The position numbers and the translations under genes are program-made. DNA of 64,000 bases from Escherichia phage tuntematon. Shown piece after piece: positions 4,292-18,139 of this stretch. The notes under the pieces are model-generated. The model searched no databases. It saw only the letters and a list, made by a program, of their open reading frames with translations, and was not told the DNA's origin. Numbering within the stretch: position 1 is the stretch's first letter; each line of letters starts with the position of its first letter. The stretch is taken from the sequence record NC_052660.1; one strand, written 5' to 3'.

Positions 4292-4898
4292 GACAATCTC
4301 CTCTCATCGTTAGCCATCTTTCATGGCAATCATCAATCACCAACATCATACGATCAATCTTAGGGAATTACAATCGAATTATCATAGGGGATTCCTATCA
4401 ATTATCCCATATATACCGATTATTTTTGACACCCCACTCTTGTATAAAAAGTAACCCAAAATATCTACGGGGAGAGATTATTTCGACACACCCTGTTTCA
4501 TGGCAATCATGGCAAGAATATCTAATAGAATCAATATCATATGGCAAAAATCATGGCGCATACGTAAGAAGTGCTTAACGCGAATTTTCGGGCCGTCAGG
4601 TCCACGCAGCGACAATTCCCAAATATCATGCGAATGAGAATAATTATCATTCGTATTCAATGACTTATGCAAGGCTTATGCCAACATAGCGACAAGGTGG
4701 GCCACTTGATTATAAATCACACAAACACTTATTTATCAATAGGTTGGCAACTTCATCATATGACGGAACATTGTCAACTAATCCCGCTCATGACAGACGG
4801 ACTATTATTCATATGAGAATGATTATTATTTAAACGTTTATTAACATAAAAACTAAAATAAATCAAGAATTTTCTGATTTTATTTACGTTTAAGAGAA

Positions 4899-5016
4899 GA
4901 TGCTCAACATATCGCTACGCGATAGTATTCGCCCCCGTGATATTTGCTCTTCTCTTAGTGCTCAACATTCCCGCCTGTGGCGGTAACATTTCGCCCCCAA
5001 AATTATTGCTTTTTAT
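4899..5016. repeat. 58-bp tandem direct repeat (2 copies) with internal palindromes
   Basis: tgctcaacat at 4901 and 4959; palindromes tatcgctacgcgata (4910-4924) and ccgcctgtggcgg (4971-4983); ttcgccccc at 4928 and 4990. Confidence 0.7.
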
Positions 5017-5379
5017 TCTATTATGTGCATAGTGTGCAATGTATCGGAATGATGATAATCATCCTCCCATTGCCCCCATAATTATTGCCATGCTAATGAT
5101 TTCATCTTGTAATTACCACAATGATTATTGTTATTGCGCTAATGTTATGATCTTGGTAATTACATATAATGCTAATAATAAGCCAGCGCAATAAGTGTAA
5201 GCGTCATTACGCTTGCAATTATTGCAAGCTACGCAGTAACAAGAAATAACCATCACCGATGGTTATGATTGTTGGGGTGTAGTTGGCTTATTATTAGCTC
5301 GCTATGTGTCCGGCATAGCGTGCTAATGATGATCCTGTGAATGATTCGTTTTGTAATGATTTCATTCAGGCACTATTTT

Positions 5380-5575
5380 GCTAATAGTTGTTATTTTAAT
5401 GGTTTCGTTTGTTATTGTTCGTTAGTTGGTTGTTTTGTCGTGTTATCGTTATCTTGCTTAGTATTCATCATGGTTTGATTGTTTGTCGTTATCAATCATC
5501 TTGCTATTATTCCTTTGATTATGATTAGTTTGCTTATTGTTTTAGGTTGTTGGTTAGTTAGTTGTTGCGAACTAT
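5380..5575. other. strongly strand-skewed GT-rich tract (CA-rich on minus strand)
   Basis: About 200 bp almost devoid of A and C on + strand, with short repeats gttattgtt, cgttatc, ttgctta; no ORF. Confidence 0.7.
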
Positions 5576-5664
5576 TATCAACATTATAGTTATGCACTTA
5601 TATTGCATAGATAAACATGGATAGATGATAATGGTTATCATTGCACTAGAAAGGAGGTAAAAGG

Positions 5665-5763
5665 GTGTTTTTGATGGTTTGTTGTTGGTTGTTGATCGAT
5701 TTTAACCGCTCTAAATGGCTCTCTAACAGCCTGTTACCCTGGGAGGTATGGTTATTCGTTTAA
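5665..5763 (+). CDS. candidate 32-aa Trp-rich small peptide
   Basis: Near-perfect SD AAGGAGGT 5651-5658, GTG 5665 (ATG 5674 in frame), stop 5761-5763; not in ORF track (under 60 aa). Confidence 0.3.
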   Translation: MFLMVCCWLLIDFNRSKWLSNSLLPWEVWLFV

Positions 5764-5847
5764 TGGTTGATTAGCTCGATACCGCGATCTATTCAGTTTT
5801 GTTCTGTGTCGGTTTTTCATAGGCGGAATCTATCAACATTATTCAGG

Positions 5848-5876
5848 CAAAAAGAAAGGGCGCTTAGTGCGCCCCT
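5848..5876 (-). terminator. intrinsic terminator after gene 5891..6310
   Basis: Hairpin gggcgc-ttagt-gcgccc 5858-5874 followed on minus strand by TTTCTTTTT. Confidence 0.7.
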
Positions 5877-5890
5877 TGTTTTGTTGTCAA

Positions 5891-6310
5891 TTATAACGCT
5901 TCATAGATTGAGTAGATCCGGTTCGCCAGGTCATTACGAAAGCGGAATTTTTCATCACGTTTAATCATCAGATCCTTAAAACCGCATTCTTTCAAGGCTT
6001 CATTAACTTTATGGCGGCAAACGTTCATATTATCTTGCGCGTCACCAATAAACTTATTACTGTGATGCATTGCTTTGATCTCTTCCTCTAATACCAGGGC
6101 AACTACACGGATCGGATCAAGCTGATATGCGGTAACATCCATGCGGCATTGTAAACGGCTTTTAACATCGTTTACCGGATATACTGCAACCTCTTCCCCG
6201 TCAACGTTCACGATAACCAATTTACCATCGATTTCGAAGCCTTTGGCGGCGCTACCGTGACAAAAAGCGTTATCGAAGGAGTAAGCTGGATTATTTGATT
6301 TAATGTTCAT
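5891..6310 (-). CDS. hypothetical early protein
   Basis: ORF with RBS AAAGGA; promoter 6356-6384 upstream. Confidence 0.6.
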   Translation of the reverse strand: MNIKSNNPAYSFDNAFCHGSAAKGFEIDGKLVIVNVDGEEVAVYPVNDVKSRLQCRMDVTAYQLDPIRVVALVLEEEIKAMHHSNKFIGDAQDNMNVCRHKVNEALKECGFKDLMIKRDEKFRFRNDLANRIYSIYEAL

Positions 6311-6355
6311 GGTGTTGTCCTTTGTTTCGTTTCGTTGTTTGCTGCCAGTGAGTTA

Positions 6356-6384
6356 AATATAATATAACGCCGATCCCCTGTCAA
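6356..6384 (-). promoter_or_regulatory. sigma70-like early promoter (no leader hairpin)
   Basis: -35 TTGACA (rc 6379-6384) inside inverted repeat atcccct/aggggat, 17-nt spacer, -10 TATATT (rc 6356-6361). Confidence 0.55.
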
Positions 6385-6422
6385 TAGGGGATAGCGCATT
6401 ATTTACATTTCTTTACGTTAAA

Positions 6423-6439
6423 GGGCGCTTGGTGCGCCC
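6423..6439 (-). terminator. terminator-like hairpin after gene 6451..6819
   Basis: gggcgc-ttggt-gcgccc, same hairpin family as 5858 and 12054; weak T-run. Confidence 0.45.
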
Positions 6440-6450
6440 CTTGTATAATC

Positions 6451-6819
6451 TTACTTTGTGCGGTTGTGAACGTTATCGCGTTCAACCATCAGGGCAAGGC
6501 GGATCAGTTGATCAGTTGTATCGCGTAAATTGTCGGGCCATGTTTTACTGTTCCAGCTATCCATGTTTGATTGTATATAGGTTTCAATGGCTTGATCCAT
6601 ATTATCAAACAAGTTTTCCTCCAGGCTCTCGGCTGTTTCACACTGGAAAGCATTAGCGACACTATTAATCAATAAGCAAGCCAGTAAATCAGCATTACGC
6701 CAATTTTTACGGATAGTTTCATCTGTCAGATAACCAACGAGATTAACCTTTGCGCCAGTGGTTGACGTTGCGATCACTTCTTGCGCTTTTTCAAGTGCTT
6801 TAATTGCTGATTTGCTCAT
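6451..6819 (-). CDS. hypothetical early protein
   Basis: ORF-track ORF; RBS AGAGGAAAATAAA. Confidence 0.6.
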   Translation of the reverse strand: MSKSAIKALEKAQEVIATSTTGAKVNLVGYLTDETIRKNWRNADLLACLLINSVANAFQCETAESLEENLFDNMDQAIETYIQSNMDSWNSKTWPDNLRDTTDQLIRLALMVERDNVHNRTK

Positions 6820-6840
6820 TTTATTTTCCTCTTTGTGGGC

Positions 6841-6896
6841 TTGCTGTATTGCTCGCCCTACGCAATAACTATAAGTTAACAGGAGCTATAAAGCAA
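6841..6896 (-). promoter_or_regulatory. PeSL-like promoter + imperfect leader hairpin
   Basis: -35 TTGCTT (rc 6891-6896), -10 TATAGT (rc 6868-6873), conserved cgtaggg then GC-rich segment 6841-6862. Confidence 0.5.
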
Positions 6897-6897
6897 G

Positions 6898-7131
6898 TTA
6901 TTTTTTATAAAATTTTTCTGCTGTGATATTCTTCCCAGTAGGCTTAACCACTTGCAAGATCTTATCATGTGCCGAACGTCCAAAAGAGTAAGATCCGTAC
7001 ACGGTAAACCAATAATCCCCGTTCGGTTGAACGGTTACGGCGGCGTACGGTGTACCTCTTTCATTATCCCCGATAAAGTGAGAAACATTACCGTTAACAT
7101 TTGGTTTAGTGCTTTTAATTTGTTCGATCAT
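6898..7131 (-). CDS. hypothetical early protein
   Basis: ORF; RBS TAGGAG. Confidence 0.55.
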   Translation of the reverse strand: MIEQIKSTKPNVNGNVSHFIGDNERGTPYAAVTVQPNGDYWFTVYGSYSFGRSAHDKILQVVKPTGKNITAEKFYKK

Positions 7132-7149
7132 GATATGACTCCTAAATCA

Positions 7150-7208
7150 GGCGGGAAACATTCCCGCCCTACGTGATAAATAGTAATGTAAGCGTGATCC
7201 GGTGTCAA
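7150..7208 (-). promoter_or_regulatory. PeSL-like promoter + leader stem-loop
   Basis: -35 TTGACA (rc 7203-7208), -10 TACTAT (rc 7180-7185), hairpin ggcgggaa-aca-ttcccgcc 7150-7168. Confidence 0.6.
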
Positions 7209-7345
7209 TAGGTAGAATTGTAAAGATTTGATAGTTTATTCCTTTGATGTTTTGTTGTTTGATAGGCGTTAGTTATCAATATATAGCGGGGTCTTCCAGT
7301 GATTATCTTCCCCGTTGCCAGTGCCGCCCGTTCAATAAGCATAAC

Positions 7346-7375
7346 AAAAAACAGGACAAAAACAAGCCCTGTTTT
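7346..7375 (-). terminator. terminator-like hairpin after gene 7383..7574
   Basis: acagg...cctgt stem followed by TTTTTTG on minus strand. Confidence 0.4.
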
Positions 7376-7382
7376 GTAAAGA

Positions 7383-7574
7383 TTAGATCTCGTCACCTAT
7401 ATAATCAGATCTGTTCTTCTCTGTCATACGCTTAAACAATTCTTGCATATGGCTTATAGCTTGCAAGGTGTCTTCTTCCAGGCTTGAATCAACATAATCA
7501 GGATCATTCTTCACCTTGCTATGGTTGTGATAGCGCAACGCTGCTAATACCTTTCTAACTTGTTCTGTATTCAT
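7383..7574 (-). CDS. hypothetical early protein
   Basis: ORF-track ORF; RBS AGGAATAA. Confidence 0.5.
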   Translation of the reverse strand: MNTEQVRKVLAALRYHNHSKVKNDPDYVDSSLEEDTLQAISHMQELFKRMTEKNRSDYIGDEI

Positions 7575-7585
7575 TTTATTATTCC

Positions 7586-7720
7586 TTAAAACCAGGTGCC
7601 AACCGTTTCCAATAGGTCACTGACTACCAGGACAACATTGATCAGCACATATTCAACCATGAAAGGGATAAGCGCCAGTGTCGCTACTATGATCCCCATT
7701 GTGATGATTACCTTTCTCAT
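7586..7720 (-). CDS. candidate 44-aa small membrane protein
   Basis: Hand-translated MRKVIITMGIIVATLALIPFMVEYVLINVVLVVSDLLETVGTWF; start 2 nt after stop of 7723..8007; not in ORF track. Confidence 0.35.
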   Translation of the reverse strand: MRKVIITMGIIVATLALIPFMVEYVLINVVLVVSDLLETVGTWF

Positions 7721-7722
7721 GG

Positions 7723-8007
7723 TTAGCGGTTTACGTGGGCTTTACCGTTTACGGTCATCGGTATGGCCTCAAGGTCTGGATCTTCCTTAAGGTCGCGCGA
7801 AAGCTCACCGCAGCGGATACCCTCGAATCCGTAGTACTCTGTTGTGCCGTCCTGGAAAGTTTTAGCGGCAAGGCATAGGCGATAATTAACACCGATCCGG
7901 TTTACCGCGTTGATATCGGTTAACGTGATGGATTTAGGCAACTCCTTAGCCATTACAGGCGTGTTAATACCAACAACCAGGGCAACTACTGCGATCATCT
8001 TTTTCAT
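7723..8007 (-). CDS. secreted or periplasmic protein (signal peptide)
   Basis: N-terminus MKKMIAVVALVVGINTPVMA looks like a Sec signal peptide. Confidence 0.6.
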   Translation of the reverse strand: MKKMIAVVALVVGINTPVMAKELPKSITLTDINAVNRIGVNYRLCLAAKTFQDGTTEYYGFEGIRCGELSRDLKEDPDLEAIPMTVNGKAHVNR

Positions 8008-8035
8008 GTGTCTATCCTCTTCCTATTGCGTTTAA

Positions 8036-8051
8036 TAGGGCGTTACCGCCC
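8036..8051 (-). other. intercistronic GC stem-loop (no promoter)
   Basis: agggcg-ttac-cgccct between genes 8062..8298 and 7723..8007; no T-run. Confidence 0.4.
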
Positions 8052-8061
8052 TGCTTAAAGT

Positions 8062-8298
8062 TTATTGATTGATGTTATAATGAAAGTTATTTTCTTCAAT
8101 AGCTTTTAAAATAAAAGCTGTGATCGCTTTCGTGTCTACTTGTTCGAACGTATCAGAATAGCACCAATAATAATCATCCCCTACTTTCGGCGGGTAAACC
8201 TGGACAAGGAGATCGCCACCTGGTTGATCTATAAGCTCAACATGCAAGCCGGATGATTCAGCGGTTTTAACGGCGGTTAATACTGTTGCAATACTCAT
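8062..8298 (-). CDS. hypothetical early protein
   Basis: ORF-track ORF. Confidence 0.55.
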   Translation of the reverse strand: MSIATVLTAVKTAESSGLHVELIDQPGGDLLVQVYPPKVGDDYYWCYSDTFEQVDTKAITAFILKAIEENNFHYNINQ

Positions 8299-8318
8299 AA
8301 TCTTTTCCTTTCTGATGT

Positions 8319-8334
8319 GGGGCGTTGCCGCCCC
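8319..8334 (-). other. intercistronic GC stem-loop (no promoter)
   Basis: ggggcg-ttgc-cgcccc between 8343..8642 and 8062..8298. Confidence 0.4.
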
Positions 8335-8342
8335 TTTGTTGA

Positions 8343-8642
8343 TTAGATCGCTGTTTCCAGTAGTTCGGCTAACGTCTTACCGCCTGATAGTTGGTCTAAC
8401 GTTTGCTCTTCTGGCAAGAAATTAGCTGATATTAATCCGACTTGATTCCCTTTGTGCCAATTAGCTTGACGGATGATTCCATCCTTTAAGGATTTTACCG
8501 CCATTGTGCAACCGTCGCCAAATGATTCATTTTTATGATCCATCACTTCATAAGCGCCCAGTTTGCTGCTGTTAGGCACCATTAACGCGAATACATCACC
8601 AACAACCAGTTTTTCTACGGTAACAATAGCGATAGTTTCCAT
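8343..8642 (-). CDS. hypothetical early protein
   Basis: ORF-track ORF; RBS GAGGAAAAC. Confidence 0.6.
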   Translation of the reverse strand: METIAIVTVEKLVVGDVFALMVPNSSKLGAYEVMDHKNESFGDGCTMAVKSLKDGIIRQANWHKGNQVGLISANFLPEEQTLDQLSGGKTLAELLETAI

Positions 8643-8660
8643 TTTGTTTTCCTCATTATC

Positions 8661-8717
8661 GGCGGCACCATTGCCGCCCTACGTGGTAAATAATACCATA
8701 TTGGGGATCGGTGTCAA
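8661..8717 (-). promoter_or_regulatory. PeSL-like promoter + leader stem-loop
   Basis: -35 TTGACA (rc 8712-8717), -10 TATTAT (rc 8690-8695), hairpin ggcggca-ccat-tgccgcc 8661-8678; near-identical copies at 15840 and 17370. Confidence 0.65.
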
Positions 8718-8723
8718 TACTTT

Positions 8724-9110
8724 TTATTCAATATAAATCAAATTATCTTCACCGATGTAAGCCGACACGTTCGGCATAAACTTAGCTGCATTGGTTAGGC
8801 GGTTGGCGGTGTTAGTGGTGTATATTTCAGTGCGATCCCAAAAGCCTACGCCGTGACCGTTACGGGTAAAATGTAAATCATTCCCGATCTGGTTGGCTGT
8901 AGCGCCGTCGCTCATCGCCTCAGAGATAGCGGCATCATTGGCATCACAAAACGCCGCAACGTCACGAATGATCCGTTGATGGGCTTGATCTGAAAATTCA
9001 TAATCAGTCATGTCATCTATAAAATTACCTTCATGATCCCTGGCTGATTCAGCAAAAATAAAGGCTTCTTTATAACCGTTGATGATTTCAATAATGATTT
9101 CTGTTTTCAT
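8724..9110 (-). CDS. hypothetical early protein
   Basis: ORF-track ORF; ATGA overlap with upstream gene. Confidence 0.6.
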   Translation of the reverse strand: MKTEIIIEIINGYKEAFIFAESARDHEGNFIDDMTDYEFSDQAHQRIIRDVAAFCDANDAAISEAMSDGATANQIGNDLHFTRNGHGVGFWDRTEIYTTNTANRLTNAAKFMPNVSAYIGEDNLIYIE

Positions 9111-9322
9111 GCTGTACGCTCGACAATAATAATAGTTTGCGGGATCTCGTTTTCTACTACTAACAAGGCTTTTTTCTGTGTAATAGATATTTTAACACGT
9201 TGTAAAGTAGCGGTGAAATCTTTCATTTCATTATGCGCGGACTTCGTGCAATGCCAGATCTCAGGCTTACCAACTTGTAAGCCGCGTAAAAATTCCGTTT
9301 TGCCTGTTTTGTTCGTGATCAT
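9107..9322 (-). CDS. hypothetical early protein
   Basis: Start moved to ATG (MITNKTGK) with RBS AAGGTGA; ORF track used upstream TTG at 9340. Confidence 0.5.
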   Translation of the reverse strand: MITNKTGKTEFLRGLQVGKPEIWHCTKSAHNEMKDFTATLQRVKISITQKKALLVVENEIPQTIIIVERTA

Positions 9323-9332
9323 TTGTTTCACC

Positions 9333-9437
9333 TTATCCAATACCGTGGGAAGATAGGATCATGTTAGCCATAGTTGCAATCACTCCAACCGATAACGCCA
9401 GGCCAACCACTGCAACCGTGAAAATTTTCTCTAACAT
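9333..9437 (-). CDS. 34-aa hydrophobic peptide
   Basis: ORF-track ORF 9333..9536 reads through the PeSL hairpin; real start taken as ATG 33 codons in (MLEKIFTVAVVGLALSV...). Confidence 0.4.
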   Translation of the reverse strand: MLEKIFTVAVVGLALSVGVIATMANMILSSHGIG

Positions 9438-9456
9438 GATTCTACCCTCATTAGTA

Positions 9457-9517
9457 GGCGTTGCACCATTGCCCCGCCCTACGTAATACACTTTACTAGA
9501 TAACAAATTATTGTCAA
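9457..9517 (-). promoter_or_regulatory. PeSL-like promoter + degenerate leader hairpin
   Basis: -35 TTGACA (rc 9512-9517), -10 TAAAGT (rc 9490-9495), degenerate hairpin 9457-9478. Confidence 0.5.
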
Positions 9518-9520
9518 GCT

Positions 9521-9658
9521 TTATTTTACTTCCCAAACGGAAAATTCGCTGCCTGTTGGGATCATCTTTTTAATCTTGTTTGCTGCCGCTACCAGGTCAA
9601 CGGCTTGCACTGTAATAATATAACCAATTGTCGAGGCTGTTGCGTTGAAAGTTTTCAT
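9521..9658 (-). CDS. candidate 45-aa protein
   Basis: Hand-translated MKTFNATASTIGYIITVQAVDLVAAANKIKKMIPTGSEFSVWEVK; RBS AAAGGGTAA; not in ORF track. Confidence 0.4.
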   Translation of the reverse strand: MKTFNATASTIGYIITVQAVDLVAAANKIKKMIPTGSEFSVWEVK

Positions 9659-9678
9659 TATATTACCCTTTAATACAG

Positions 9679-9696
9679 GCGGGATTAATCCCGCCT
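9679..9696 (-). other. intercistronic GC stem-loop
   Basis: ggcggga-ttaa-tcccgcc between 9703.. and 9521..9658. Confidence 0.4.
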
Positions 9697-9702
9697 TGTT
9701 GA

Positions 9703-9873
9703 TTACTCTTCATCGTCGCCGTTATAGTATTCAATGCCGTTTTCATCGGTTACGGTGATGTTAACGCCACCGATAGCAACACGATCACGGGCAAACGTCA
9801 TAGCTTCATTTAAATCTTCAGACCAAAAAATATTGTGACCTTTGCGCGATACATAAAACATAGTCGGGATCAT
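9703..9873 (-). CDS. hypothetical early protein (57 aa)
   Basis: ORF-track ORF 9703..9957 translates the PeSL hairpin; start moved to ATG 28 codons in (MIPTMFYV...). Confidence 0.5.
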   Translation of the reverse strand: MIPTMFYVSRKGHNIFWSEDLNEAMTFARDRVAIGGVNITVTDENGIEYYNGDDEE

Positions 9874-9894
9874 GATTTGTTTCTCTTCTGTTGT

Positions 9895-9957
9895 GAGCGG
9901 TGGACCATTCCGCCGCTCTATGTAATAAACTTTACTACGTTGTTTGCCTACTGTCAA
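9895..9957 (-). promoter_or_regulatory. PeSL-like promoter + leader stem-loop
   Basis: -35 TTGACA (rc 9952-9957), 17-nt spacer, -10 TAAAGT (rc 9929-9934), hairpin 9895-9918. Confidence 0.6.
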
Positions 9958-9958
9958 A

Positions 9959-10243
9959 TTATTTTTTAATGTTTTGCCCTACAAAATTGATCACTTCCTT
10001 AAGCTGTTTCTCAGTCATGATCGTGCCTGGTAGTTCCTCTTTGATTTCTTCCGGTAAATAGATATTACCGCGCCAGGTTAACAAACAACCGTTTTGATCT
10101 TCGCAGATAGAATAAGAAAACATCCACTCGCAATCATTTTCAAGCTCCCAAAAACACAAAAAGTCTTCTTTCCCTAAGTTTTCAACGGTTAAACATAATC
10201 CGCGACGTGCTGCATAATTAGTTAGGCTTTTTGTTATTTTCAT
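9959..10243 (-). CDS. hypothetical early protein (94 aa)
   Basis: Start moved 17 codons in (MKITKSLTNY); the ORF-track N-terminus is hairpin-encoded. Confidence 0.55.
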   Translation of the reverse strand: MKITKSLTNYAARRGLCLTVENLGKEDFLCFWELENDCEWMFSYSICEDQNGCLLTWRGNIYLPEEIKEELPGTIMTEKQLKEVINFVGQNIKK

Positions 10244-10262
10244 GATTTTTCTCTCTTCTTGT

Positions 10263-10320
10263 GAGCGGCACCATTGCCGCCCTACAAGATACATATTATC
10301 AGACTAGGCGGACTTGTCAA
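10263..10320 (-). promoter_or_regulatory. PeSL-like promoter + leader stem-loop
   Basis: -35 TTGACA (rc 10315-10320), -10 TAATAT (rc 10293-10298), hairpin gcggca-ccat-tgccgc 10265-10280. Confidence 0.65.
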
Positions 10321-10321
10321 A

Positions 10322-10432
10322 CTATTTTTTCTTTTTCTTTGCTTCCAACCGTCTAAGGTTACGGCTTGACTTATTGCGCAAGGCGCTTAGATCGTCGTAC
10401 CCTTTCCATGCTTGCATATCTTTCGGATTCAT
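10322..10432 (-). CDS. 36-aa Lys-rich small protein
   Basis: Internal ATG (MNPKDMQAWKGY...KKKKK) with RBS AAGGGGGA; the upstream part of ORF-track ORF 10322..10594 overlaps gene 10443..10721. Confidence 0.4.
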   Translation of the reverse strand: MNPKDMQAWKGYDDLSALRNKSSRNLRRLEAKKKKK

Positions 10433-10442
10433 GTTATCCCCC

Positions 10443-10721: not shown

Positions 10722-10742
10722 GATTTTTTCTCTCTTCTGTTA

Positions 10743-11753: not shown

Positions 11754-11772
11754 AATATTTACCTTTTTGTAT

Positions 11773-11831: not shown

Positions 11832-11837
11832 CCACTT

Positions 11838-12023: not shown

Positions 12024-12053
12024 TTTTGTTTATCCTCTACATGTAAAAAGAAA

Positions 12054-12070
12054 GGGCGCTTGGTGCGCCC
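12054..12070 (-). terminator. intrinsic terminator or leader hairpin
   Basis: gggcgc-ttggt-gcgccc followed on minus strand by TTTCTTTTT. Confidence 0.55.
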
Positions 12071-12078
12071 TTGTTATG

Positions 12079-12225
12079 TTAATCCTCTAAATCCATCCAA
12101 TTATATTTGTCACTCTTCCCGCGCTTTGTTTTATTGCGCTTGTCGCCTTTGCGGATCACTTCCTCATTCCAGGCCTTGCGGATCTTGGAAGATTGAATTT
12201 TTTCTGCGCGATTAGATGTGTTCAT
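12079..12225 (-). CDS. candidate 48-aa basic protein
   Basis: Hand-translated MNTSNRAEKIQSSKIRKAWNEEVIRKGDKRNKTKRGKSDKYNWMDLED; RBS AAAGAGGAAAC; not in ORF track. Confidence 0.4.
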   Translation of the reverse strand: MNTSNRAEKIQSSKIRKAWNEEVIRKGDKRNKTKRGKSDKYNWMDLED

Positions 12226-12245
12226 TTTGTTTCCTCTTTATATGA

Positions 12246-12298
12246 GCGGCACCATTGCCGCTATATTGTTAATTTAAACTGTTTTGTAAAATTGTCAA
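12246..12298 (-). promoter_or_regulatory. PeSL-like promoter (weak -10) + leader stem-loop
   Basis: -35 TTGACA (rc 12293-12298), hairpin gcggca-ccat-tgccgc 12246-12261. Confidence 0.5.
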
Positions 12299-12304
12299 GG
12301 TTTA

Positions 12305-12658
12305 TCATTCATAAGAGCAAGCAAGGATCACGCCTGCAATATAAAGCCAATAATTTTCCCTTTCTCGTTGGATTTTATCATCGCTGCTATTCTCTTTAAT
12401 GTATCCCCAGGATGTTAACAAGCGATCAATTTCCCAATATTCGAAAGCGATATTAATGTCTGATGGCAAACCTTGTAACCATGATGCAAGTGCTTTAACA
12501 ATACTATAATTAAAACGTGATTGGTTATCAGGGTACCAGTACTCGGAATTAAAACGGCGCATCAATTCCGCGATCTTCTCTTTTTCGGTTGTAATACCAT
12601 AATCATTAAAATCGATAGCGGCAAGGATGTACTCTTTAATTGCATTTTGTGCTTTCAT
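12305..12658 (-). CDS. hypothetical early protein
   Basis: ORF-track ORF. Confidence 0.6.
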   Translation of the reverse strand: MKAQNAIKEYILAAIDFNDYGITTEKEKIAELMRRFNSEYWYPDNQSRFNYSIVKALASWLQGLPSDINIAFEYWEIDRLLTSWGYIKENSSDDKIQRERENYWLYIAGVILACSYE

Positions 12659-12676
12659 GGTCTTTCTCTCTTTTTA

Positions 12677-12733
12677 GCGGGAACTATTCCCGCCCTATGT
12701 GTAACAGTTTACTGAAAATTAAATCTGTGTCAA
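12677..12733 (-). promoter_or_regulatory. PeSL-like promoter + leader stem-loop
   Basis: -35 TTGACA (rc 12728-12733), -10 TAAACT (rc 12706-12711), hairpin gcgggaa-ctat-tcccgcc 12677-12694. Confidence 0.6.
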
Positions 12734-12736
12734 GTT

Positions 12737-12958
12737 TTATTTTGTTACTACCATTTGGTACCCTGTTTCAATGTTGCTAAACACTGTTATCCCGTCCTGG
12801 CGTTCACTCATTAGCATACAAGGCGCTAACATCCTTTCTACTGCCTTGCACTCGTTGTAAACGGCGGTTATATCTCCTGCTGCCTTGTCTTCTGTAGTAA
12901 ATGTCTCATTTACGTAAACTTGACCAGCGACAACGGTGACAATAGCGAAAGTGATCAT
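12737..12958 (-). CDS. hypothetical early protein
   Basis: ORF-track ORF. Confidence 0.55.
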   Translation of the reverse strand: MITFAIVTVVAGQVYVNETFTTEDKAAGDITAVYNECKAVERMLAPCMLMSERQDGITVFSNIETGYQMVVTK

Positions 12959-13031
12959 GATGTTTTTCTCTTTATGTGTTTCGATTAGTTGATATTACAG
13001 CAATTCGCAGATTAGTTTTTAGCAATTCGTG

Positions 13032-13250
13032 CTATTTACTCATAACAGTATCGAAAACAAATTTTTCTTTGTTGTCAAAGCTCACGTATCCGATTCGACC
13101 ACGCAAGCCGCGAGTAGTGCCGTATTCGTAACCGTCAAGACCTTTAACCTTCCAATCCACGCCCATTAAAACCGCATTATATTTCTGACCAACTACAAAC
13201 GCGCCACCAGTTGATTCAATGCAAACAACTTTAATTTTACGGATTGCCAT
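13032..13250 (-). CDS. hypothetical early protein
   Basis: ORF-track ORF; RBS AGAGAGAAAGAAAA. Confidence 0.55.
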   Translation of the reverse strand: MAIRKIKVVCIESTGGAFVVGQKYNAVLMGVDWKVKGLDGYEYGTTRGLRGRIGYVSFDNKEKFVFDTVMSK

Positions 13251-13288
13251 TTTCTTTCTCTCTTTCTGGTGATTGGTTTCTCTTCTCT

Positions 13289-13312
13289 ATAGCGCCCATT
13301 ATAAGGCGCTAT
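13289..13312 (-). other. intercistronic stem-loop
   Basis: atagcgcc-cattataa-ggcgctat, 8-bp stem. Confidence 0.4.
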
Positions 13313-13328
13313 AACGAAAAGTCAACGA

Positions 13329-13496
13329 TTATTTTTTAAGGCTTAAAGTACCTAACTTGTCAGCGTGACGCAGACCAGGGAAGATCCATTTGCCTGATTC
13401 ATCTTTTACAGGGGCTTTAAGTGTAGCGCCCAGGTTGGCGGCGTTAACTTTACGTGCAACGTTGCGAGCGGCTTCACGGGTAGTAAAAGTAATCAT
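13329..13496 (-). CDS. candidate 55-aa protein
   Basis: Hand-translated MITFTTREAARNVARKVNAANLGATLKAPVKDESGKWIFPGLRHADKLGTLSLKK; not in ORF track. Confidence 0.4.
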   Translation of the reverse strand: MITFTTREAARNVARKVNAANLGATLKAPVKDESGKWIFPGLRHADKLGTLSLKK

Positions 13497-13520
13497 GATG
13501 TTTTCCTCTTCTCTTTGTTA

Positions 13521-13581
13521 GGCGGTGGACCATTCCCCGCCTTGATGTAATACAGTTTACTTTATTTTTGCAGTATTGCAA
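13521..13581 (-). promoter_or_regulatory. PeSL-like promoter + leader stem-loop
   Basis: -35 TTGCAA (13576-13581), -10 TAAACT (rc 13554-13559), hairpin 13521-13541. Confidence 0.55.
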
Positions 13582-13586
13582 GCGTT

Positions 13587-13799
13587 TTATGAAATAATCG
13601 TCAAAGTAAAATTGTAATCACCTGATTGATACAATACCTTGTCACCGAACGTTCCAACACGTTTAACATTGCAATATATACCCATAACACTTTTTACATC
13701 TTTGATATTCTTCACGCCTGTAATATCTTTATTAAAATGATCGTGATCAGAAAATAAAACTTGTTTTGCATTTTTTAACAGTGTGCGGATATTAGCCAT
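13587..13799 (-). CDS. hypothetical early protein
   Basis: ORF-track ORF. Confidence 0.55.
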   Translation of the reverse strand: MANIRTLLKNAKQVLFSDHDHFNKDITGVKNIKDVKSVMGIYCNVKRVGTFGDKVLYQSGDYNFTLTIIS

Positions 13800-13822
13800 C
13801 GTGATAATCTCTCTTCTGTTGT

Positions 13823-13880
13823 GAGCGGCACCATTGCCGCCCTACGTAATATAGTTTACTCTTTTTCTTTCCCGTGTCAA
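13823..13880 (-). promoter_or_regulatory. PeSL-like promoter + leader stem-loop
   Basis: -35 TTGACA (rc 13875-13880), -10 TAAACT (rc 13853-13858), hairpin gcggca-ccat-tgccgc 13825-13840. Confidence 0.65.
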
Positions 13881-13889
13881 CAATCTTTT

Positions 13890-14117
13890 TCAGATTAATT
13901 CATCCAGGCATAACAGGCGATCAACGTTGAGATCGGTTAGGCTGATGGTTGGCACCTGGTAGGATTCGATGTACTCGACGCTTGCATATTCCCCAAAATT
14001 AGCAATAGCCCACTTATTCAAGATCTCACATACATCATTAATCTTTTTGTTTGTTACAACTGCAATAACCTGGGAAGTGCCAACGGTGCCGGATACGCGA
14101 ACAATATTGATAGCCAT
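13890..14117 (-). CDS. hypothetical early protein
   Basis: ORF-track ORF. Confidence 0.55.
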   Translation of the reverse strand: MAINIVRVSGTVGTSQVIAVVTNKKINDVCEILNKWAIANFGEYASVEYIESYQVPTISLTDLNVDRLLCLDELI

Positions 14118-14139
14118 AATCTTTAATCTCTCTGTTGTT

Positions 14140-14199
14140 GGCGGGAAACCACTTCCCGCCCTATGTGATACATCTTACACTAATTTTAAACGTTGTCAA
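14140..14199 (-). promoter_or_regulatory. PeSL-like promoter + leader stem-loop
   Basis: -35 TTGACA (rc 14194-14199), -10 TAAGAT (rc 14172-14177), hairpin ggcgggaa-accac-ttcccgcc 14140-14160. Confidence 0.65.
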
Positions 14200-14208
14200 C
14201 TGTTTTTA

Positions 14209-14448
14209 TTACATTCCAACCATCGCGGCGCGGATCGCAGTAGTGCTATATTTGAAACCGTCTGGCGTTTTATCTTGTCCAGTTTGTTCCAGAAAAAGCA
14301 TCATATCCCGCGCAGCATCATTACGATTAGTATTAGCGGCGATAAATTCTTTCGCCAACCGATATAATGATTCATCGTTATTAATCCAAAGGCTTACATT
14401 CCAATGAGTTTTGTTTTTGTGACCTAAGAACATTTTTGATTTAGCCAT
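14209..14448 (-). CDS. hypothetical early protein
   Basis: ORF-track ORF. Confidence 0.55.
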   Translation of the reverse strand: MAKSKMFLGHKNKTHWNVSLWINNDESLYRLAKEFIAANTNRNDAARDMMLFLEQTGQDKTPDGFKYSTTAIRAAMVGM

Positions 14449-14472
14449 GATATTAATCTCTTTTTCAGTGAG

Positions 14473-14531
14473 GCGGGAACTATTCCCGCTCTCTATGTAA
14501 TACAGTTTACTCTTTTTATTCGTGCTGTCAA
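14473..14531 (-). promoter_or_regulatory. PeSL-like promoter + leader stem-loop
   Basis: -35 TTGACA (rc 14526-14531), -10 TAAACT (rc 14504-14509), hairpin gcgggaa-cta-ttcccgc 14473-14489. Confidence 0.6.
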
Positions 14532-14537
14532 TGCTTT

Positions 14538-14903
14538 TTATAAATCTTTTTTACGTTTAACATCGCTTGCATGACTGTATACAGCGATCCCATTATCACG
14601 GCAAAAACGGGAAAGGTAGGCATAATTTGAAAACTCTTTACCTTCCAGGTTGATAACCTTGCTAAACTCTTCTAGGGCAACGGTATCAAAATGATCCCCA
14701 TAGCCATATTGAAACGGAACGTTAACTACTTCGATCAGTTTACCGCCGATCTCAACGTCAACCATCAAAGAGAAATAAGTATTACCATAAGACTTTTGAA
14801 ACCAGCGACGGGCGCTAATATGTACCGCTTCAATGCTGGATAGTTCAATTTTAGCAGTGTTAGCCAGGGTAGCATAAGCAGAAACATTGATATTTTTAGC
14901 CAT
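14538..14903 (-). CDS. hypothetical early protein
   Basis: ORF-track ORF. Confidence 0.6.
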   Translation of the reverse strand: MAKNINVSAYATLANTAKIELSSIEAVHISARRWFQKSYGNTYFSLMVDVEIGGKLIEVVNVPFQYGYGDHFDTVALEEFSKVINLEGKEFSNYAYLSRFCRDNGIAVYSHASDVKRKKDL

Positions 14904-14950
14904 AGTCTTTAATCTCTTTTGATTAGTTAGGAGTATTCCCGATAAAAGTT

Positions 14951-14988
14951 ATTATGCTTATACTATCACTCATTGTCAATAGTATAAG
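14951..14988 (-). promoter_or_regulatory. early promoter overlapped by 10-bp inverted repeat (operator candidate)
   Basis: -35 TTGACA (rc 14974-14979), -10 CATAAT (rc 14951-14956); inverted repeat cttatactat 14957-14966 / atagtataag 14979-14988. Confidence 0.5.
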
Positions 14989-14998
14989 ACTAAAACTT

Positions 14999-15178
14999 TT
15001 AACGATAATCGTTATAGGCTTTATTGACCTGGCGAATGTAACATTCGAAAGCAAGATCAATGTATTCGTATTCACGCACATAATCACCATAGGTCACTAC
15101 ATACATTTTTAAAGTTTCCTCATAAGCCAGGAGGATCGAATCTAAACCTATAATCTCAGTTTTTGCAATGATAGCCAT
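14999..15178 (-). CDS. candidate 59-aa protein
   Basis: Hand-translated MAIIAKTEIIGLDSILLAYEETLKMYVVTYGDYVREYEYIDLAFECYIRQVNKAYNDYR; not in ORF track. Confidence 0.4.
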   Translation of the reverse strand: MAIIAKTEIIGLDSILLAYEETLKMYVVTYGDYVREYEYIDLAFECYIRQVNKAYNDYR

Positions 15179-15198
15179 GATGTTAACCTTTTATTGTT

Positions 15199-15255
15199 GG
15201 CGGCACCATTGCCGCCCTACGTGATAAACTATACCAGAATTTTAAACAGTGTCAA
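15199..15255 (-). promoter_or_regulatory. PeSL-like promoter + leader stem-loop
   Basis: -35 TTGACA (rc 15250-15255), -10 TATAGT (rc 15228-15233), hairpin ggcggca-ccat-tgccgcc 15199-15216. Confidence 0.65.
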
Positions 15256-15261
15256 CCGTTT

Positions 15262-15624
15262 TTATTCGTAAATTTTACCGCTCTCGGCCCATACCATAAC
15301 GCGGCGCATACTATCCCAAGTGTTCTGATCCAAGTTTAAGCCGTGCAACTCTTCGGTACTTCCCAGACCAGGTACCGCCTTGTTGTAAGTAGCATATAAG
15401 CGCCCTTGATACTCATACGCCAGAGTAAGATCCGTTTGAATCATCTTTTTAAGCATAGCATTAAGCATCATATTAGCGGCATGTTGATCACGTTTTAGCG
15501 GTAACATATCAATAAGGGCGCGATAAGCTGAAACATGAATATCAACCGTTTCACGTGGTAAATTTTTCATATCATCGCGGAAAGATACCAGATTAAACAT
15601 GATAGTATTGATTTGCTTGCTCAT
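15262..15624 (-). CDS. hypothetical early protein (120 aa)
   Basis: Start moved 19 codons in (MSKQINTIMFN); ORF-track N-terminus is hairpin-encoded. Confidence 0.55.
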   Translation of the reverse strand: MSKQINTIMFNLVSFRDDMKNLPRETVDIHVSAYRALIDMLPLKRDQHAANMMLNAMLKKMIQTDLTLAYEYQGRLYATYNKAVPGLGSTEELHGLNLDQNTWDSMRRVMVWAESGKIYE

Positions 15625-15646
15625 TGTGTTACCCTTTTTTTGTTTT

Positions 15647-15707
15647 GGCGGGGAAGTATTCCGCCGCCCTATGTGATACATCTTATCAGATTAAAAAACG
15701 TTGTCAA
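15647..15707 (-). promoter_or_regulatory. PeSL-like promoter + leader stem-loop
   Basis: -35 TTGACA (rc 15702-15707), -10 TAAGAT (rc 15680-15685), hairpin 15647-15668. Confidence 0.55.
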
Positions 15708-15716
15708 GAATATTTT

Positions 15717-15812
15717 TTAGAAAATAATAGCCGCTACTACAACCCAAAATGGAACGGCGAAAATGATAGCATTAATCGTTCCAACCGTCAAGCTATTTTC
15801 TTTATTAATCAT
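15717..15812 (-). CDS. candidate 31-aa hydrophobic peptide
   Basis: Hand-translated MINKENSLTVGTINAIIFAVPFWVVVAAIIF; RBS AAGAGG; not in ORF track. Confidence 0.35.
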   Translation of the reverse strand: MINKENSLTVGTINAIIFAVPFWVVVAAIIF

Positions 15813-15839
15813 TGTAAACCTCTTGCATAATTTCACTAT

Positions 15840-15898
15840 GAGCGGCACCATTGCCGCCCTACGTGGTAAATATTATGCCAGTGGCGGCGATATGTCAA
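15840..15898 (-). promoter_or_regulatory. PeSL-like promoter + leader stem-loop
   Basis: -35 TTGACA (rc 15893-15898), 17-nt spacer, -10 TAATAT (rc 15870-15875), hairpin gcggca-ccat-tgccgc 15842-15857. Confidence 0.65.
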
Positions 15899-16461
15899 AG
15901 ACTATTTTCAAAGTTTTCTAGTGCGATCCTTTTTTCTTCCTCTGTCGGCTGATAATCAGGAAAAGCATCAACACACAACAACGGCGGGATCTCTTCGTAC
16001 TCTTCCTCTTCCGTTGTCTCCTCGTCTTCCTCCTGGGCTATGGCTGCAATTTTGGCTAATTTTCTTTCAGCTTGAATCAATTTACCATCAAGTACGTTTT
16101 TTGCCATGTTGTAAGCGGTCCAGGTGATGCGCTTACTTTCCAATGCTTCATCAAGCGCCGCTATCTTGCTGGGGTATTCATCCAGGACACGAAAAGCCGG
16201 ATCAACTTTGTATAAAGGATTATCTTTCGCGCCATCGCTCGCATCTTCCGCACTGGATAAATCAGCGTTACCATTTGCCAGCCAACCAGGGCGCACATAA
16301 CGCGCTTTTACGTTGCCGTTACTACGTGCTAATCTGTTACCTATTTGCTCACCGCTATATCCCGTGGATTCATCGATAAGATGATCGGGAATGATGCGCG
16401 GATCATCTGCTTCATGTTTTACCCAAGACTGGATCACATATTCGCGGCCCATATTAACCAC
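15895..16461 (-). CDS. hypothetical acidic early protein
   Basis: ORF-track ORF; acidic tract EEDEETTEEEEYEEIPP. Confidence 0.6.
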   Translation of the reverse strand: MVNMGREYVIQSWVKHEADDPRIIPDHLIDESTGYSGEQIGNRLARSNGNVKARYVRPGWLANGNADLSSAEDASDGAKDNPLYKVDPAFRVLDEYPSKIAALDEALESKRITWTAYNMAKNVLDGKLIQAERKLAKIAAIAQEEDEETTEEEEYEEIPPLLCVDAFPDYQPTEEEKRIALENFENSL

Positions 16462-16711
16462 CTTTTTTCAACAATTGACATACTTTAAAAAGACTTGCTG
16501 AATCCTTGCAAGGGTAGAAAGATGTACGATAATCACGTACGCCAACCTTGCGGATCTCGATGTTTTCGCATGTTGTTTGATCAAAGATATTTATTTCATC
16601 ACGCCCCCTTATATAAACATAGTGGGGATGTATTAACGCATATTTTGCTAATCTGTAAAAAGCGTTATCTTTGAACGCGATCACGTGACCTTTTAATTTG
16701 ATGTAAAACAT
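16454..16711 (-). CDS. hypothetical early protein
   Basis: ORF-track ORF; 8-nt overlap with downstream gene. Confidence 0.55.
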   Translation of the reverse strand: MFYIKLKGHVIAFKDNAFYRLAKYALIHPHYVYIRGRDEINIFDQTTCENIEIRKVGVRDYRTSFYPCKDSASLFKVCQLLKKGG

Positions 16712-16728
16712 TCTACCACCTTACAAAT

Positions 16729-16784
16729 AGCGGGAACTATTCCCGCTTTATGTAACATATTAACAAATTATTCGTTAATGTCAA
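16729..16784 (-). promoter_or_regulatory. PeSL-like promoter + leader stem-loop
   Basis: -35 TTGACA (rc 16779-16784), -10 TAATAT (rc 16757-16762), hairpin 16729-16747. Confidence 0.6.
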
Positions 16785-16787
16785 GCC

Positions 16788-17060
16788 TTAAAGCAAAAAC
16801 GCTACATCTTGCGCTTTTAGTGTAGTATCAACCATTTTCGGGCTTTTATAATCAACAAAGCGCGCGGTTTTTTCAATAGCGAAACCGAGATAATCTTGTT
16901 TGTTGAAATTACATTCTTTCTTAAATGTTTCCCGTGCAATGGCAATCGCTGCGTCCAGGGATAAACGCCCGTCAATATTGATATTAGCGAAAGATCCGCC
17001 ACCGCTCATAGGTTTACCAGTTGTGCCAGCTACGATCATTGTTGCGCTATATGATGCCAT
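16788..17060 (-). CDS. hypothetical early protein
   Basis: ORF-track ORF; the overlapping 16817..17002 frame is rejected. Confidence 0.55.
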   Translation of the reverse strand: MASYSATMIVAGTTGKPMSGGGSFANINIDGRLSLDAAIAIARETFKKECNFNKQDYLGFAIEKTARFVDYKSPKMVDTTLKAQDVAFLL

Positions 17061-17083
17061 GATGATAATCTCTCTTCTGTTAC

Positions 17084-17144
17084 GAGCGGGAAACCACTTC
17101 CCGCCCTATGTGATACATCTTATCAGGTTGTTGTTTGTTGTCAA
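17084..17144 (-). promoter_or_regulatory. PeSL-like promoter + leader stem-loop
   Basis: -35 TTGACA (rc 17139-17144), -10 TAAGAT (rc 17117-17122), hairpin 17086-17104. Confidence 0.6.
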
Positions 17145-17150
17145 TACTTT

Positions 17151-17348
17151 TTATTCTATCCCTGCAATTTGATTAACGCGCTTGCATTTTGTAGCGTGCT
17201 GGTCTTCTGTAATGACTCCCATTTCTAACAGGGAATCAATGAAAGATAAAACCGTTTCATGATCATCCTGGGGATGACTGAACTCAGTAAAACCGTTTAC
17301 TATTACGTTGATTTGTCCAGCTTTCGCCACAATGTGCAATGTTGCCAT
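17151..17348 (-). CDS. hypothetical early protein (65 aa)
   Basis: Start moved 30 codons in (MATLHIVAKAGQ); ORF-track N-terminus is hairpin-encoded. Confidence 0.5.
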   Translation of the reverse strand: MATLHIVAKAGQINVIVNGFTEFSHPQDDHETVLSFIDSLLEMGVITEDQHATKCKRVNQIAGIE

Positions 17349-17369
17349 GATCTTAACTCCAAATAGTGA

Positions 17370-17426
17370 GCGGCACCATTGCCGCGCTACGTGGTAAATA
17401 TTATGCCGCCACCTGGCGAACGTCAA
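17370..17426 (-). promoter_or_regulatory. PeSL-like promoter + leader stem-loop (first of array)
   Basis: -35 TTGACG (rc 17421-17426), -10 TAATAT (rc 17398-17403), hairpin 17370-17385. Confidence 0.6.
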
Positions 17427-17535
17427 CCACTTTTTCAATCTTTTTTATTTTCTTTTTGCTTGCTATATATAAAGGAAAGGGCTATCATCTTTCTACCGCG
17501 CCAACCAGGGCGCACAACAAAGAAAGGGCGACACC

Positions 17536-17802
17536 ATGACAACTACTACATTACACCTTATGCACTCATTGGGCTGGCAAGGCGGCACGGTGCACCAGGT
17601 AGCAAGCGCAACGGGCTTAAAGGTTGAAACCGTTCTCAACCTGGGCGATCATAAAGTGGAAGAGATAGAACATTTTGATCCGTTCGCTGATGGTTATTTA
17701 TGGGCTTGTAATGGCGGCGGGGAAAGCAAGATACCGCCAGGGGCGCGGGGCGATATGTATTTTTGGTTAGGTGTCCTATCCTGGCAAGAAAACAAAAAAT
17801 AA
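17536..17802 (+). CDS. hypothetical protein, divergent from early array
   Basis: ORF-track ORF; candidate promoter TTGCTA-17-TATCAT near 17457-17485. Confidence 0.45.
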   Translation: MTTTTLHLMHSLGWQGGTVHQVASATGLKVETVLNLGDHKVEEIEHFDPFADGYLWACNGGGESKIPPGARGDMYFWLGVLSWQENKK

Positions 17803-17804
17803 TC

Positions 17805-17833
17805 TTGACAAGCCCAGGGATCGGGCTTATACT
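17805..17833 (+). promoter_or_regulatory. orphan sigma70-like promoter facing ORF-free region
   Basis: TTGACA 17805-17810, 17-nt spacer, TATACT 17828-17833; no ORF of 60 aa or more in the 0.8 kb downstream. Confidence 0.55.
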
Positions 17834-18091
17834 GTTTTACATACAGAAGAGGAAGCGCCACCCCACGGCGTAAAGGCGGGGCTAACATACCAGGGGCACT
17901 GGTTGGAAGGTTGATCGCCGGTAGCTCGTCTAAAATAAATTTGTAAAGAAATGTAAAGATAAAAATAATCGCTTGCTTTTGTTGTTGGTTATGTTATTCT
18001 TATTGTATGGCGAGGGGACACGGGAGCGCGAGACAAACACCGCCCCTGCGCGTCATTCTCTAAATGAGATTGATTCTTATTTAATAAAGTA

Positions 18092-18139
18092 AATGATAAT
18101 CATTCTCATTTATAAACTTAAATGCGAATCATTATCATT
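18092..18139. promoter_or_regulatory. two Fur-box-like palindromes
   Basis: aatgataatcatt (18092-18104) equals the 13-bp core of the Fur box consensus GATAATGATAATCATTATC; gaatcattatcatt (18126-18139) is close. Confidence 0.35.

Follow-up and report, generated by a model that had tools for sequence, protein, structure and literature searches.

What are sequences that resemble the operator of the host's iron-responsive regulator Fur doing in two large non-coding regions of a virulent phage? We addressed this question for Escherichia phage tuntematon (NC_052660.1), of which we analysed a stretch of 64,000 nucleotides, here called the window. The two non-coding regions, R1 (4292-5890) and R2 (17803-18610), together amount to 2.4 kb, leaving a remainder of 61.6 kb, and are those of phAPEC8-like E. 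coli myoviruses (Phapecoctavirus, Stephanstirmvirinae), with 94-99% identity. The window is the reverse complement relative to the phAPEC8 record, so its genes are on the minus strand: R2 comes after gene 18611-19153 and its terminator, the early block (5.9-17.4 kb, minus strand) lies between the two regions, and a terminator at 5877-5855 (minus strand) precedes R1. A previous sequence-only reading had noticed five Fur-box-like strings in R1 and R2, and had proposed that they confer iron-responsive control of early transcription or titrate host Fur, unless they are chance AT-rich palindromes. We arrive at a different reading, to which we give a probability of roughly one in two: host Fur binds these sites and has a local, architectural role there, and the sites are not operators of the early promoters.

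The sites were scored with matrices taken from 14 E. coli K-12 intergenic regions that are established Fur targets (fepA-fes, fepD-entS, fepB-entC, fhuA, fur, fiu, fhuE, tonB, cirA, exbB, ryhB, fecA, fecI and fhuF), most of which have been footprinted or gel-shifted (Chen et al. 2007). A 19-bp classical matrix was built from the best site per region, and the consensus that it recovers is the textbook Fur box; a second matrix holds the same sites re-registered to a 7-1-7 arrangement. In the classical register, eight of the ten best matches in the window are inside R1 and R2. Agreement with the 19-bp consensus GATAATGATAATCATTATC reaches 16/19 at 18089-18107 and 15/19 at 4630-4648, 5048-5066 and 5627-5645; the window sites range from 13 to 16 of 19, as against 11-17 for the E. 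coli training sites. In the 7-1-7 register, R1 and R2 contain every one of the nine matches that reach 16 bits; over the other 61.6 kb of the window, the maximum is 14.6 bits. The copies in the window score 17.2-27.2 bits with this matrix, compared with 11.5-25.1 bits for the E. coli sites; they are as Fur-box-like as real E. coli operators, or more so.

The most economical alternative is that these are AT-rich palindromes that arose by chance, or RNA hairpins without a protein partner. The regions are indeed AT-rich (34-37% GC), and each palindrome could form a short stem. However, 2000 dinucleotide shuffles gave the maximum score a P value of 0.003 in R1 and of less than 0.0005 in R2, and 0 of the 2000 had as many sites of at least 14 bits in the classical register as were observed. 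Among 300 Markov simulations per region, none came up to the actual maximum of R1, R2 or the terminal repeat described below. The hairpin version of this alternative fits poorly as well: the copies converge on specific bases without covariation, and many half-sites are non-complementary (GAG against TAT). Half-sites switch between GAGAAT and GATAAT independently of each other, so that hairpin complementarity is lost while the sequence stays within what Fur tolerates, which indicates a protein site and not an RNA stem. Since the sites are also conserved across genera, this alternative is statistically refuted, and we consider it extremely improbable.

With these results most of the observations that had been made from the sequence hold. 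Fur-box-like sequences do recur in both non-coding regions, above a shuffled background, and the strings at 18092-18104, 18126-18139, 4815-4830 and 5051-5063 are present exactly as they had been quoted. The fifth string, gataa-tgg-ttatc, is present too, but its start had been placed one base off; it occupies 5627-5639. Three sites had been overlooked (4633-4651, 18063-18081 and 18150-18168). Conversely, the string at 5051-5063 is weak: the match that contains it (5045-5066) probably lies outside the palindrome family, with a strength within chance, since a shuffled R1 has a mean of 0.46 sites that reach 12 bits. The suspicion of chance, as a general explanation, was unfounded, given scores far above background, confinement to the two hubs and conservation across genera. 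The only strong classical-register match outside R1 and R2, at 50371-50389 (GATAATGATTTTAATAATT), scores 18.0 bits there and 13.1 bits in the 7-1-7 register, is non-palindromic and is likely a chance match.

What the sites have in common is best seen without reference to Fur. A scan for odd palindromes that was blind to base identity, over ten non-coding regions of eight phages, found one family in 18 of 29 cases: a 19-bp palindrome, AATGAGAAT-N-ATTCTCATT. On the evidence of its sequence, each copy is a complete 7-1-7 Fur-dimer unit, as known from enterobacterial Fur operators (tGATAATnATTATCa). When E. coli sites are placed in this register, their consensus is AATGATAAT-N-ATTATCATT (AATGATAATCATTATCATT). 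The frequency matrices of the phage and E. coli sites correlate with r = 0.933, whereas the maximum for permuted columns is 0.557, and a single column pair, 6/14, differs (G 0.76 in the phage sites; T 0.55 and G 0.20 in E. coli). The phage copies in this comparison score 18.8-27.2 bits. The resemblance to E. coli Fur operators is closest for that of ryhB (AATAATAATCATTCTCATT), with which two window copies share 18 of 19 bases: 18092-18110, the top-scoring site of the window, and 4812-4830, in reverse complement. It extends to the same 19-bp dyad and the same tolerated variants (GATAAT, GAGAAT, GCGAAT and GAAAAT). Overlapping sites phased by 6 bp are known from Fur clusters (Chen et al. 2007). 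Overlaps offset by 6 bp also occur here, at 4633/4639 and 18121/18127 in the 7-1-7 register and at 18083/18089/18095 and 4630/4636 in the classical one. Unlike E. coli operators, the phage sites lie off any identifiable regulated -35/-10 pair, are found in the terminal repeat of a virulent phage and in a phased four-copy array, and prefer G at position 4 of the heptamer. We consider it quite probable that the palindromes are Fur-type operators, which host Fur would bind in vitro. The sites and the features around them are collected in Table 1.

Table 1. Palindromes and associated features of R1, R2 and the early block (window coordinates; bits are those of the 7-1-7 register unless marked classical)
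Feature	Position	Strand	Remarks
Direct terminal repeat, 329 bp	4576..4904		homology to Schickermooser
Palindrome A, AATGAGAATAATTATCATT	4633-4651		26.7 bits, 7-1-7
Site overlapping palindrome A, +6 bp	4639-4657		18.4 bits, 7-1-7
Palindrome B, TATGAGAATGATTATTATT	4812-4830		22.9 bits, 7-1-7
Weak match, gatgataatcatc	5045..5066		12.2 bits classical, <12 bits 7-1-7
Palindrome C, GATGATAATGGTTATCATT, core TGATAATgGTTATCA	5624-5642		20.6 bits, 7-1-7
Early module	7152, 8662, 10265, 11496, 12246, 13825, 15200, 15842, 17370	-	repeated motif
Promoter P1, TTGACA-17-TATACT	17805-17833	+	11/12 to consensus; points toward array
Conserved non-coding block between P1 and array, ~220 nt, GC-rich	17839-18060	+	multi-genus alignment
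Promoter-like P2, inside conserved block	-35 TTGCTT 17973-17978, -10 TATTCT 17995-18000	+	
Array copy 1, AATGAGATTGATTCTTATT, centre 18072	18063-18081		20.4 bits
Array copy 2, AATGATAATCATTCTCATT, centre 18101	18092-18110		27.2 bits 7-1-7; 21.7 bits classical, 16/19
Array copy 3, AATGCGAATCATTATCATT, centre 18130	18121-18139		24.8 bits
Site overlapping copy 3, +6 bp	18127-18145		18.4 bits
Array copy 4, TATGAGAACCCTTCTCATT, centre 18159	18150-18168		17.2 bits; degenerate, 3-base centre
AT-rich block, far side of array	18183-18392		two 72-nt direct repeats, 18183-18254 and 18321-18392

The position of the R1 palindromes is defined by the ends of the genome. In phage Schickermooser, which is 97% identical here, bases 1-329 of the record equal its last 329 bases; window 4904->4259 corresponds to the start of that record, and 4910->4576 to its end. 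These identical ends thus indicate that 4576-4904 is the direct terminal repeat of tuntematon too, an assignment that we infer by homology. For Schickermooser, a terminal repeat of 328 bp has been reported (Korf et al. 2019). Phage-forward is the window's minus strand, with 4904 as the left physical end and 4576 as the right one. Palindromes A and B are both inside the repeat, the centre of A, which is the strongest R1 site, 66 bp from the right genome end, and the centre of B 83 bp from the left end. In the classical register, A and its overlapping site score 18.8 and 18.1 bits, with 15/19 to the consensus. Palindrome C is ~720 bp into the right-end non-coding DNA.

Two kinds of short repeats accompany the terminal repeat. 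Both of its boundaries fall inside one 9-mer, RTGCT/YAAC (the slash marks the boundary), at 4571-4579 (GTGCT/TAAC) and 4900-4908 (ATGCT/CAAC). A third copy is found at 4958-4966, 54 bp beyond the left boundary, and the 9-mer is also present at both inferred boundaries in the Justusliebigvirus phage inny; it may be a terminase cutting signal. Just beyond the left boundary are three direct repeats, GCCCCC(N)AATTATTGC, at 4931-4947, 4993-5009 and 5072-5088 (spacing 62 and 79 bp), which are candidates for the packaging recognition site. Further into R1, just past palindrome C and on the strand opposite the genes, 5652-5763 (+) has a strong ribosome-binding site (RBS), AAGGAGG, followed by a 32-codon hydrophobic open reading frame (ORF; GTG 5665 to TAA 5763). 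We rejected this ORF as a Fur-regulated gene, as neither it nor its RBS is present in inny.

In R2, the four palindrome centres are at an exact 29-bp pitch, 13.5 kb (~9%) from the right genome end, and the promoter-dense block of small genes, with its ~24 host-type promoters, is on the terminal side of the array. On the same side are the strong promoter P1 and the promoter-like P2, both directed toward the array. PBES02 (TTGACG-17-CATAAT) and GE_vB_MG (TTGCAA-17-TATAGT) retain the P1 hexamers around a spacer that has diverged. The block between P1 and the array can be aligned among Phapecoctavirus, Justusliebigvirus, Certrevirus and Seunavirus, and as the indels in this alignment do not come in multiples of three, it is non-coding; R2 as a whole has no convincing ORF. 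Searches of Rfam gave nothing credible (at the gathering threshold over the whole window, and up to an E-value of 10 in R2), a tRNA scan found no tRNA, and two of the 37 pairs in a predicted structure of the block covary among five sequences. The block is either an RNA of a new type or a DNA-level control region. Beyond the array, the two 72-nt repeats of the AT-rich block, 82% identical and 138 bp apart, contain AAACTTTAAAT motifs, and four sites here resemble promoters of the minus strand. A similar repeat region is annotated in inny.

Several side observations concern the surroundings of the array. The plus strand at 17536-17802 holds an 88-amino-acid ORF on the strand opposite all its neighbours. 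Annotations of several relatives include this ORF, and at its end is the hairpin that makes up the P1 spacer. The T5 nick octamer, CCCTGCGC, occurs at 18044-18051, 12 bp from the first R2 palindrome; in T5, the 7.9% nick site is at 9661-9668, 24 bp from the last palindrome. As a nick site, the tuntematon octamer was rejected: relatives have CTGCCC there, and the likeness, which is not conserved, is probably a coincidence. A CpxR-box-like sequence, GTAAAGAAATGTAAA, occurs twice, at 17943-17957 (+) and 6402-6416 (-), each copy ~23-25 bp upstream of a -35 hexamer; the second box and its promoter module span 6416-6350 on the minus strand. The CpxR box consensus is GTAAA-N5-GTAAA, and in relatives both GTAAA halves are constant and the 5-base spacer is variable. 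These copies may provide an envelope-stress input to two phage promoters.

The palindromes are conserved in place as well as in sequence. Inny has ~69% identity to tuntematon and many indels, and nonetheless has four R1 sites at homologous places (16.6-24.7 bits). Its homologue of palindrome A (21.1 bits) is 63 bp from the inferred boundary, compared with 66, and that of palindrome B (GATAATGATTATCATTTGC, 24.7 bits) is 85 bp from its boundary, compared with 83; the homologue of palindrome C (AAGAATGATTATCATTTAA) is retained amid diverged flanks. In R2, the order of promoter, conserved block and palindromes is common to several genera, and arrays of one to eight copies are found at the same place in four genera that infect Escherichia, Cronobacter and Salmonella: phiWec188 has eight copies, inny has five, PBES02 (Cronobacter) has four or five and GE_vB_MG (Salmonella, Seunavirus) has one. 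The first copy adjoins the conserved block in all five phages compared, and at the place of the degenerate copy 4, phiWec188 has a clean copy, GTGAGAATAATTCTCATT.

This pattern bears on the proposal that the palindromes are a sink, which titrates host Fur as the genome amplifies and so derepresses iron uptake, RyhB and an alternative ribonucleotide reductase to the benefit of phage DNA synthesis. Multicopy Fur boxes do derepress the regulon, as in the Fur titration assay; the phage sites equal or exceed host operators in strength; there are ~9 per genome plus those of the duplicated terminal repeat; and the copy number in R2 varies between one and eight among relatives. However, four R1 sites hold their positions and their distances to the ends at ~69% identity, and the first R2 copy always adjoins the conserved block. 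A decoy needs number, not place, so this conservation counts against a sink. The Seunavirus relative makes do with a single R2 copy, and derepression of receptors could trap progeny phage. A sink is therefore an unlikely primary function. That the sites keep a set place with respect to the genome ends and the P1/P2 block instead suggests a local role in cis.

Does this role consist in iron-responsive repression, in which Fur occludes promoters that overlap its boxes, so that some transcripts appear only in iron-starved hosts? Plus-strand hexamers overlap three sites (TAAACA-18-TATCAT at 5612-5641, across palindrome C; TTTATA-18-TATCAT at 18109-18138; and a ryhB-like TATTAT within 4812-4830), and several relatives have a possible minus-strand TTNAAT-18-NAGAAT around the first R2 copy. 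But the motif itself includes TATCAT and TATTAT, and overlaps of this kind come free; the small ORF past the 5624 site is not conserved in inny, and the candidates in R2 have no downstream ORF. The early block has ~24 TTGACA-type promoters on the minus strand, and its repeated module consists of TTGACA-N16/17-TAnnnT, a near-invariant leader hairpin (GTAGGGCGGCAATGGTGCCGC) and an RBS. None of the eight early promoter regions that were scored, namely those with the leader-hairpin motif, has a Fur-like site (maximum 8.4 bits). The R2 array is off any recognisable -35/-10 pair and downstream of two conserved promoters, and two of the R1 sites are in the terminal repeat. Bulk early transcription is thus probably not controlled by the palindromes, and the iron-responsive control of early transcription that the sequence-only reading had suggested is not supported; classical repression at other promoters of the phage is improbable. 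As a separate observation, a 27-base match to the early module is found in the left terminal repeat of T5 (~5019-5045).

The same element is found in phages that are otherwise unrelated. A sensitive search with R2 matched T5-like phages over the array alone: the sequence at 18117-18147 is identical to T5 direct repeat C at 30 of 31 positions, and to the T5-like phage LmqsSP1 at 31 of 31. Matches of T5 to our matrix (18.2-20.3 bits) coincide with annotated copies 1-4 of direct repeat C and palindromes E-I, at 9468-9637; next to this stretch are the 7.9% nick and the shear point calculated for first-step transfer. By this measure of likeness, the direct repeat C copies at the T5 injection-stop region (Repeat Region 3) are the same element as the tuntematon palindromes. 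The function of the T5 repeats has been called impossible to guess, with no mention of Fur (Davison). In both phages several copies stand side by side in a non-coding hub that is conserved and lies inside, or at the border of, the genome end that carries the early genes. Beyond that, T5 has paired DnaA boxes beside its array (IRD'-spacer-IRC'), a terminal repeat of ~10 kb, the genes A1, A2 and dmp and a proven two-step injection, whereas the terminal repeat of tuntematon is only 329 bp. Six consensus DnaA boxes occur in the window, none of them in R1 or R2, and a tblastn search with all ORFs of the T5 left repeat, A1, A2 and dmp included, gave nothing significant in the window, which covers 64 kb of ~150 kb. 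Tuntematon thus shares the T5 element, but not the T5 system.

Beyond these phages, when viral contigs were scanned for the exact pattern, more than 120 stretches of their DNA had the motif. Arrays of five to seven copies are present in T5-like phages and in at least three unrelated uncultured contexts (contigs L019/L036, L067 and L116). For two of these, the phage collection contains no DNA homologue, and for the third the similarity is through the array only. In L019 and L116, the array is followed at a short distance by a strong promoter and the first gene. The flanks that were examined around other arrays have no ORFs in common with the window. A motif that recurs in unrelated phages and contigs without shared ORFs fits a binder supplied by the host.

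Nevertheless, the binder might resemble Fur in its sequence preference only. It could be a phage initiator acting on origin iterons, a factor for packaging or end processing, or a host factor other than Fur. Phased 29-bp repeats, AT-rich 72-nt repeats and promoters P1 and P2 directed toward them are features that fit replication-origin iterons, and the exact pitch next to AT-rich repeats and inward-firing promoters is in this sense origin-like. Two copies lie just inside the two boundaries of the terminal repeat, the T5 array adjoins paired DnaA boxes and a nick site, and the systematic G at column 6 differs from the Fur optimum. Set against this, every other column fits the Fur matrix, the copies vary where Fur tolerates variation, consensus DnaA boxes are absent from R1 and R2, and phage families and uncultured contigs that are unrelated share the motif without having neighbouring ORFs in common. 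On balance, we think another binder rather unlikely.

The reading in which host Fur acts locally at these sites could work as follows. Iron-loaded dimers of host Fur would bind the palindromes; the sequence equivalence and the conservation are observed, and binding is what they would imply. A Fur-coated stretch would then be a clamp or roadblock that depends on iron and acts on whatever traverses the hubs. In R2, it would act on transcription from P1 and P2 into the AT-rich repeats, which may be an origin-like region; in the terminal repeat, it would act on events near the DNA ends. Any Fur soaked up by the multiplying genomes would be a side effect. The variable copy number of the arrays is compatible with a coated stretch that serves as a clamp or roadblock. 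Which process would be gated is the weakest step, for which transcription into the AT-rich repeats, origin firing and near-end events are the candidates.

Several points weigh against this proposal. The matrices are partly circular, as they were made from best-match picks within regions known to be Fur-regulated, and the G at column 6/14 replaces the T that is the Fur optimum. No clear promoter is occluded by the palindromes. No iron-homeostasis genes are nearby, the neighbours being all small hypothetical proteins by the annotations of relatives, to which no family search was added. The assignment of the terminal repeat relies on homology to Schickermooser and not on sequencing reads for tuntematon itself, and the search for a shared phage-encoded binder covered the local flanks of the arrays, not whole genomes. 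We know of no citable precedent for Fur as a clamp or roadblock, and the incomplete literature that we searched held nothing relevant on Fur in connection with phAPEC8, T5 or phage genomes.

A bolder extension of local Fur action would be that Fur-operator arrays are a shared cis signal for DNA transactions in unrelated virulent enterobacterial phages and no switch of transcription, that the T5 direct repeat C works through host Fur, and that the R2 array is the counterpart of the T5 first-step-transfer boundary (7.9%). We regard this as a long shot. If it were true, DNA entry, end processing or origin firing would be coupled to the iron state of the host.

Host Fur-type sites on phage DNA are not without parallel, although those of tuntematon are predicted from sequence. 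A Fur box is found on temperate lambdoid phages at the sitABCD cargo operon, and another on a temperate phage at the Shiga toxin 1 gene (stx1). In these cases a single operator is located at an iron-related cargo promoter in a prophage, whereas tuntematon is virulent, has no cargo gene and carries its arrays at the genome ends and hubs. To our knowledge, iron-related cargo-gene operators on prophages are the only Fur boxes known on phage DNA. Phage cis elements do include sites for other host factors, such as IHF at cos and attP of phage lambda. In T5, the DnaA boxes of the iss region, as in Davison's model, are a further case. By analogy with IHF and DnaA, Fur could be a host DNA-binding protein that serves as an architectural part of a site of phage DNA transactions. 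We are not aware of any report of Fur in such a role. What appears to be new, in that it was not found in the literature searched, is that virulent phages have Fur-type arrays in their non-coding hubs and terminal repeat, and that these arrays are identical with T5 direct repeat C.

The nature of the T5 injection-stop signal has been open for more than 50 years. If Fur does not bind the palindromes, then a widespread and precisely conserved phage motif still lacks its partner. If Fur does bind them, this would bear on the function of the T5 repeats, on the sensing of iron by phage DNA entry, packaging or replication, and on the reprogramming of the Fur regulon by amplifying phage genomes.

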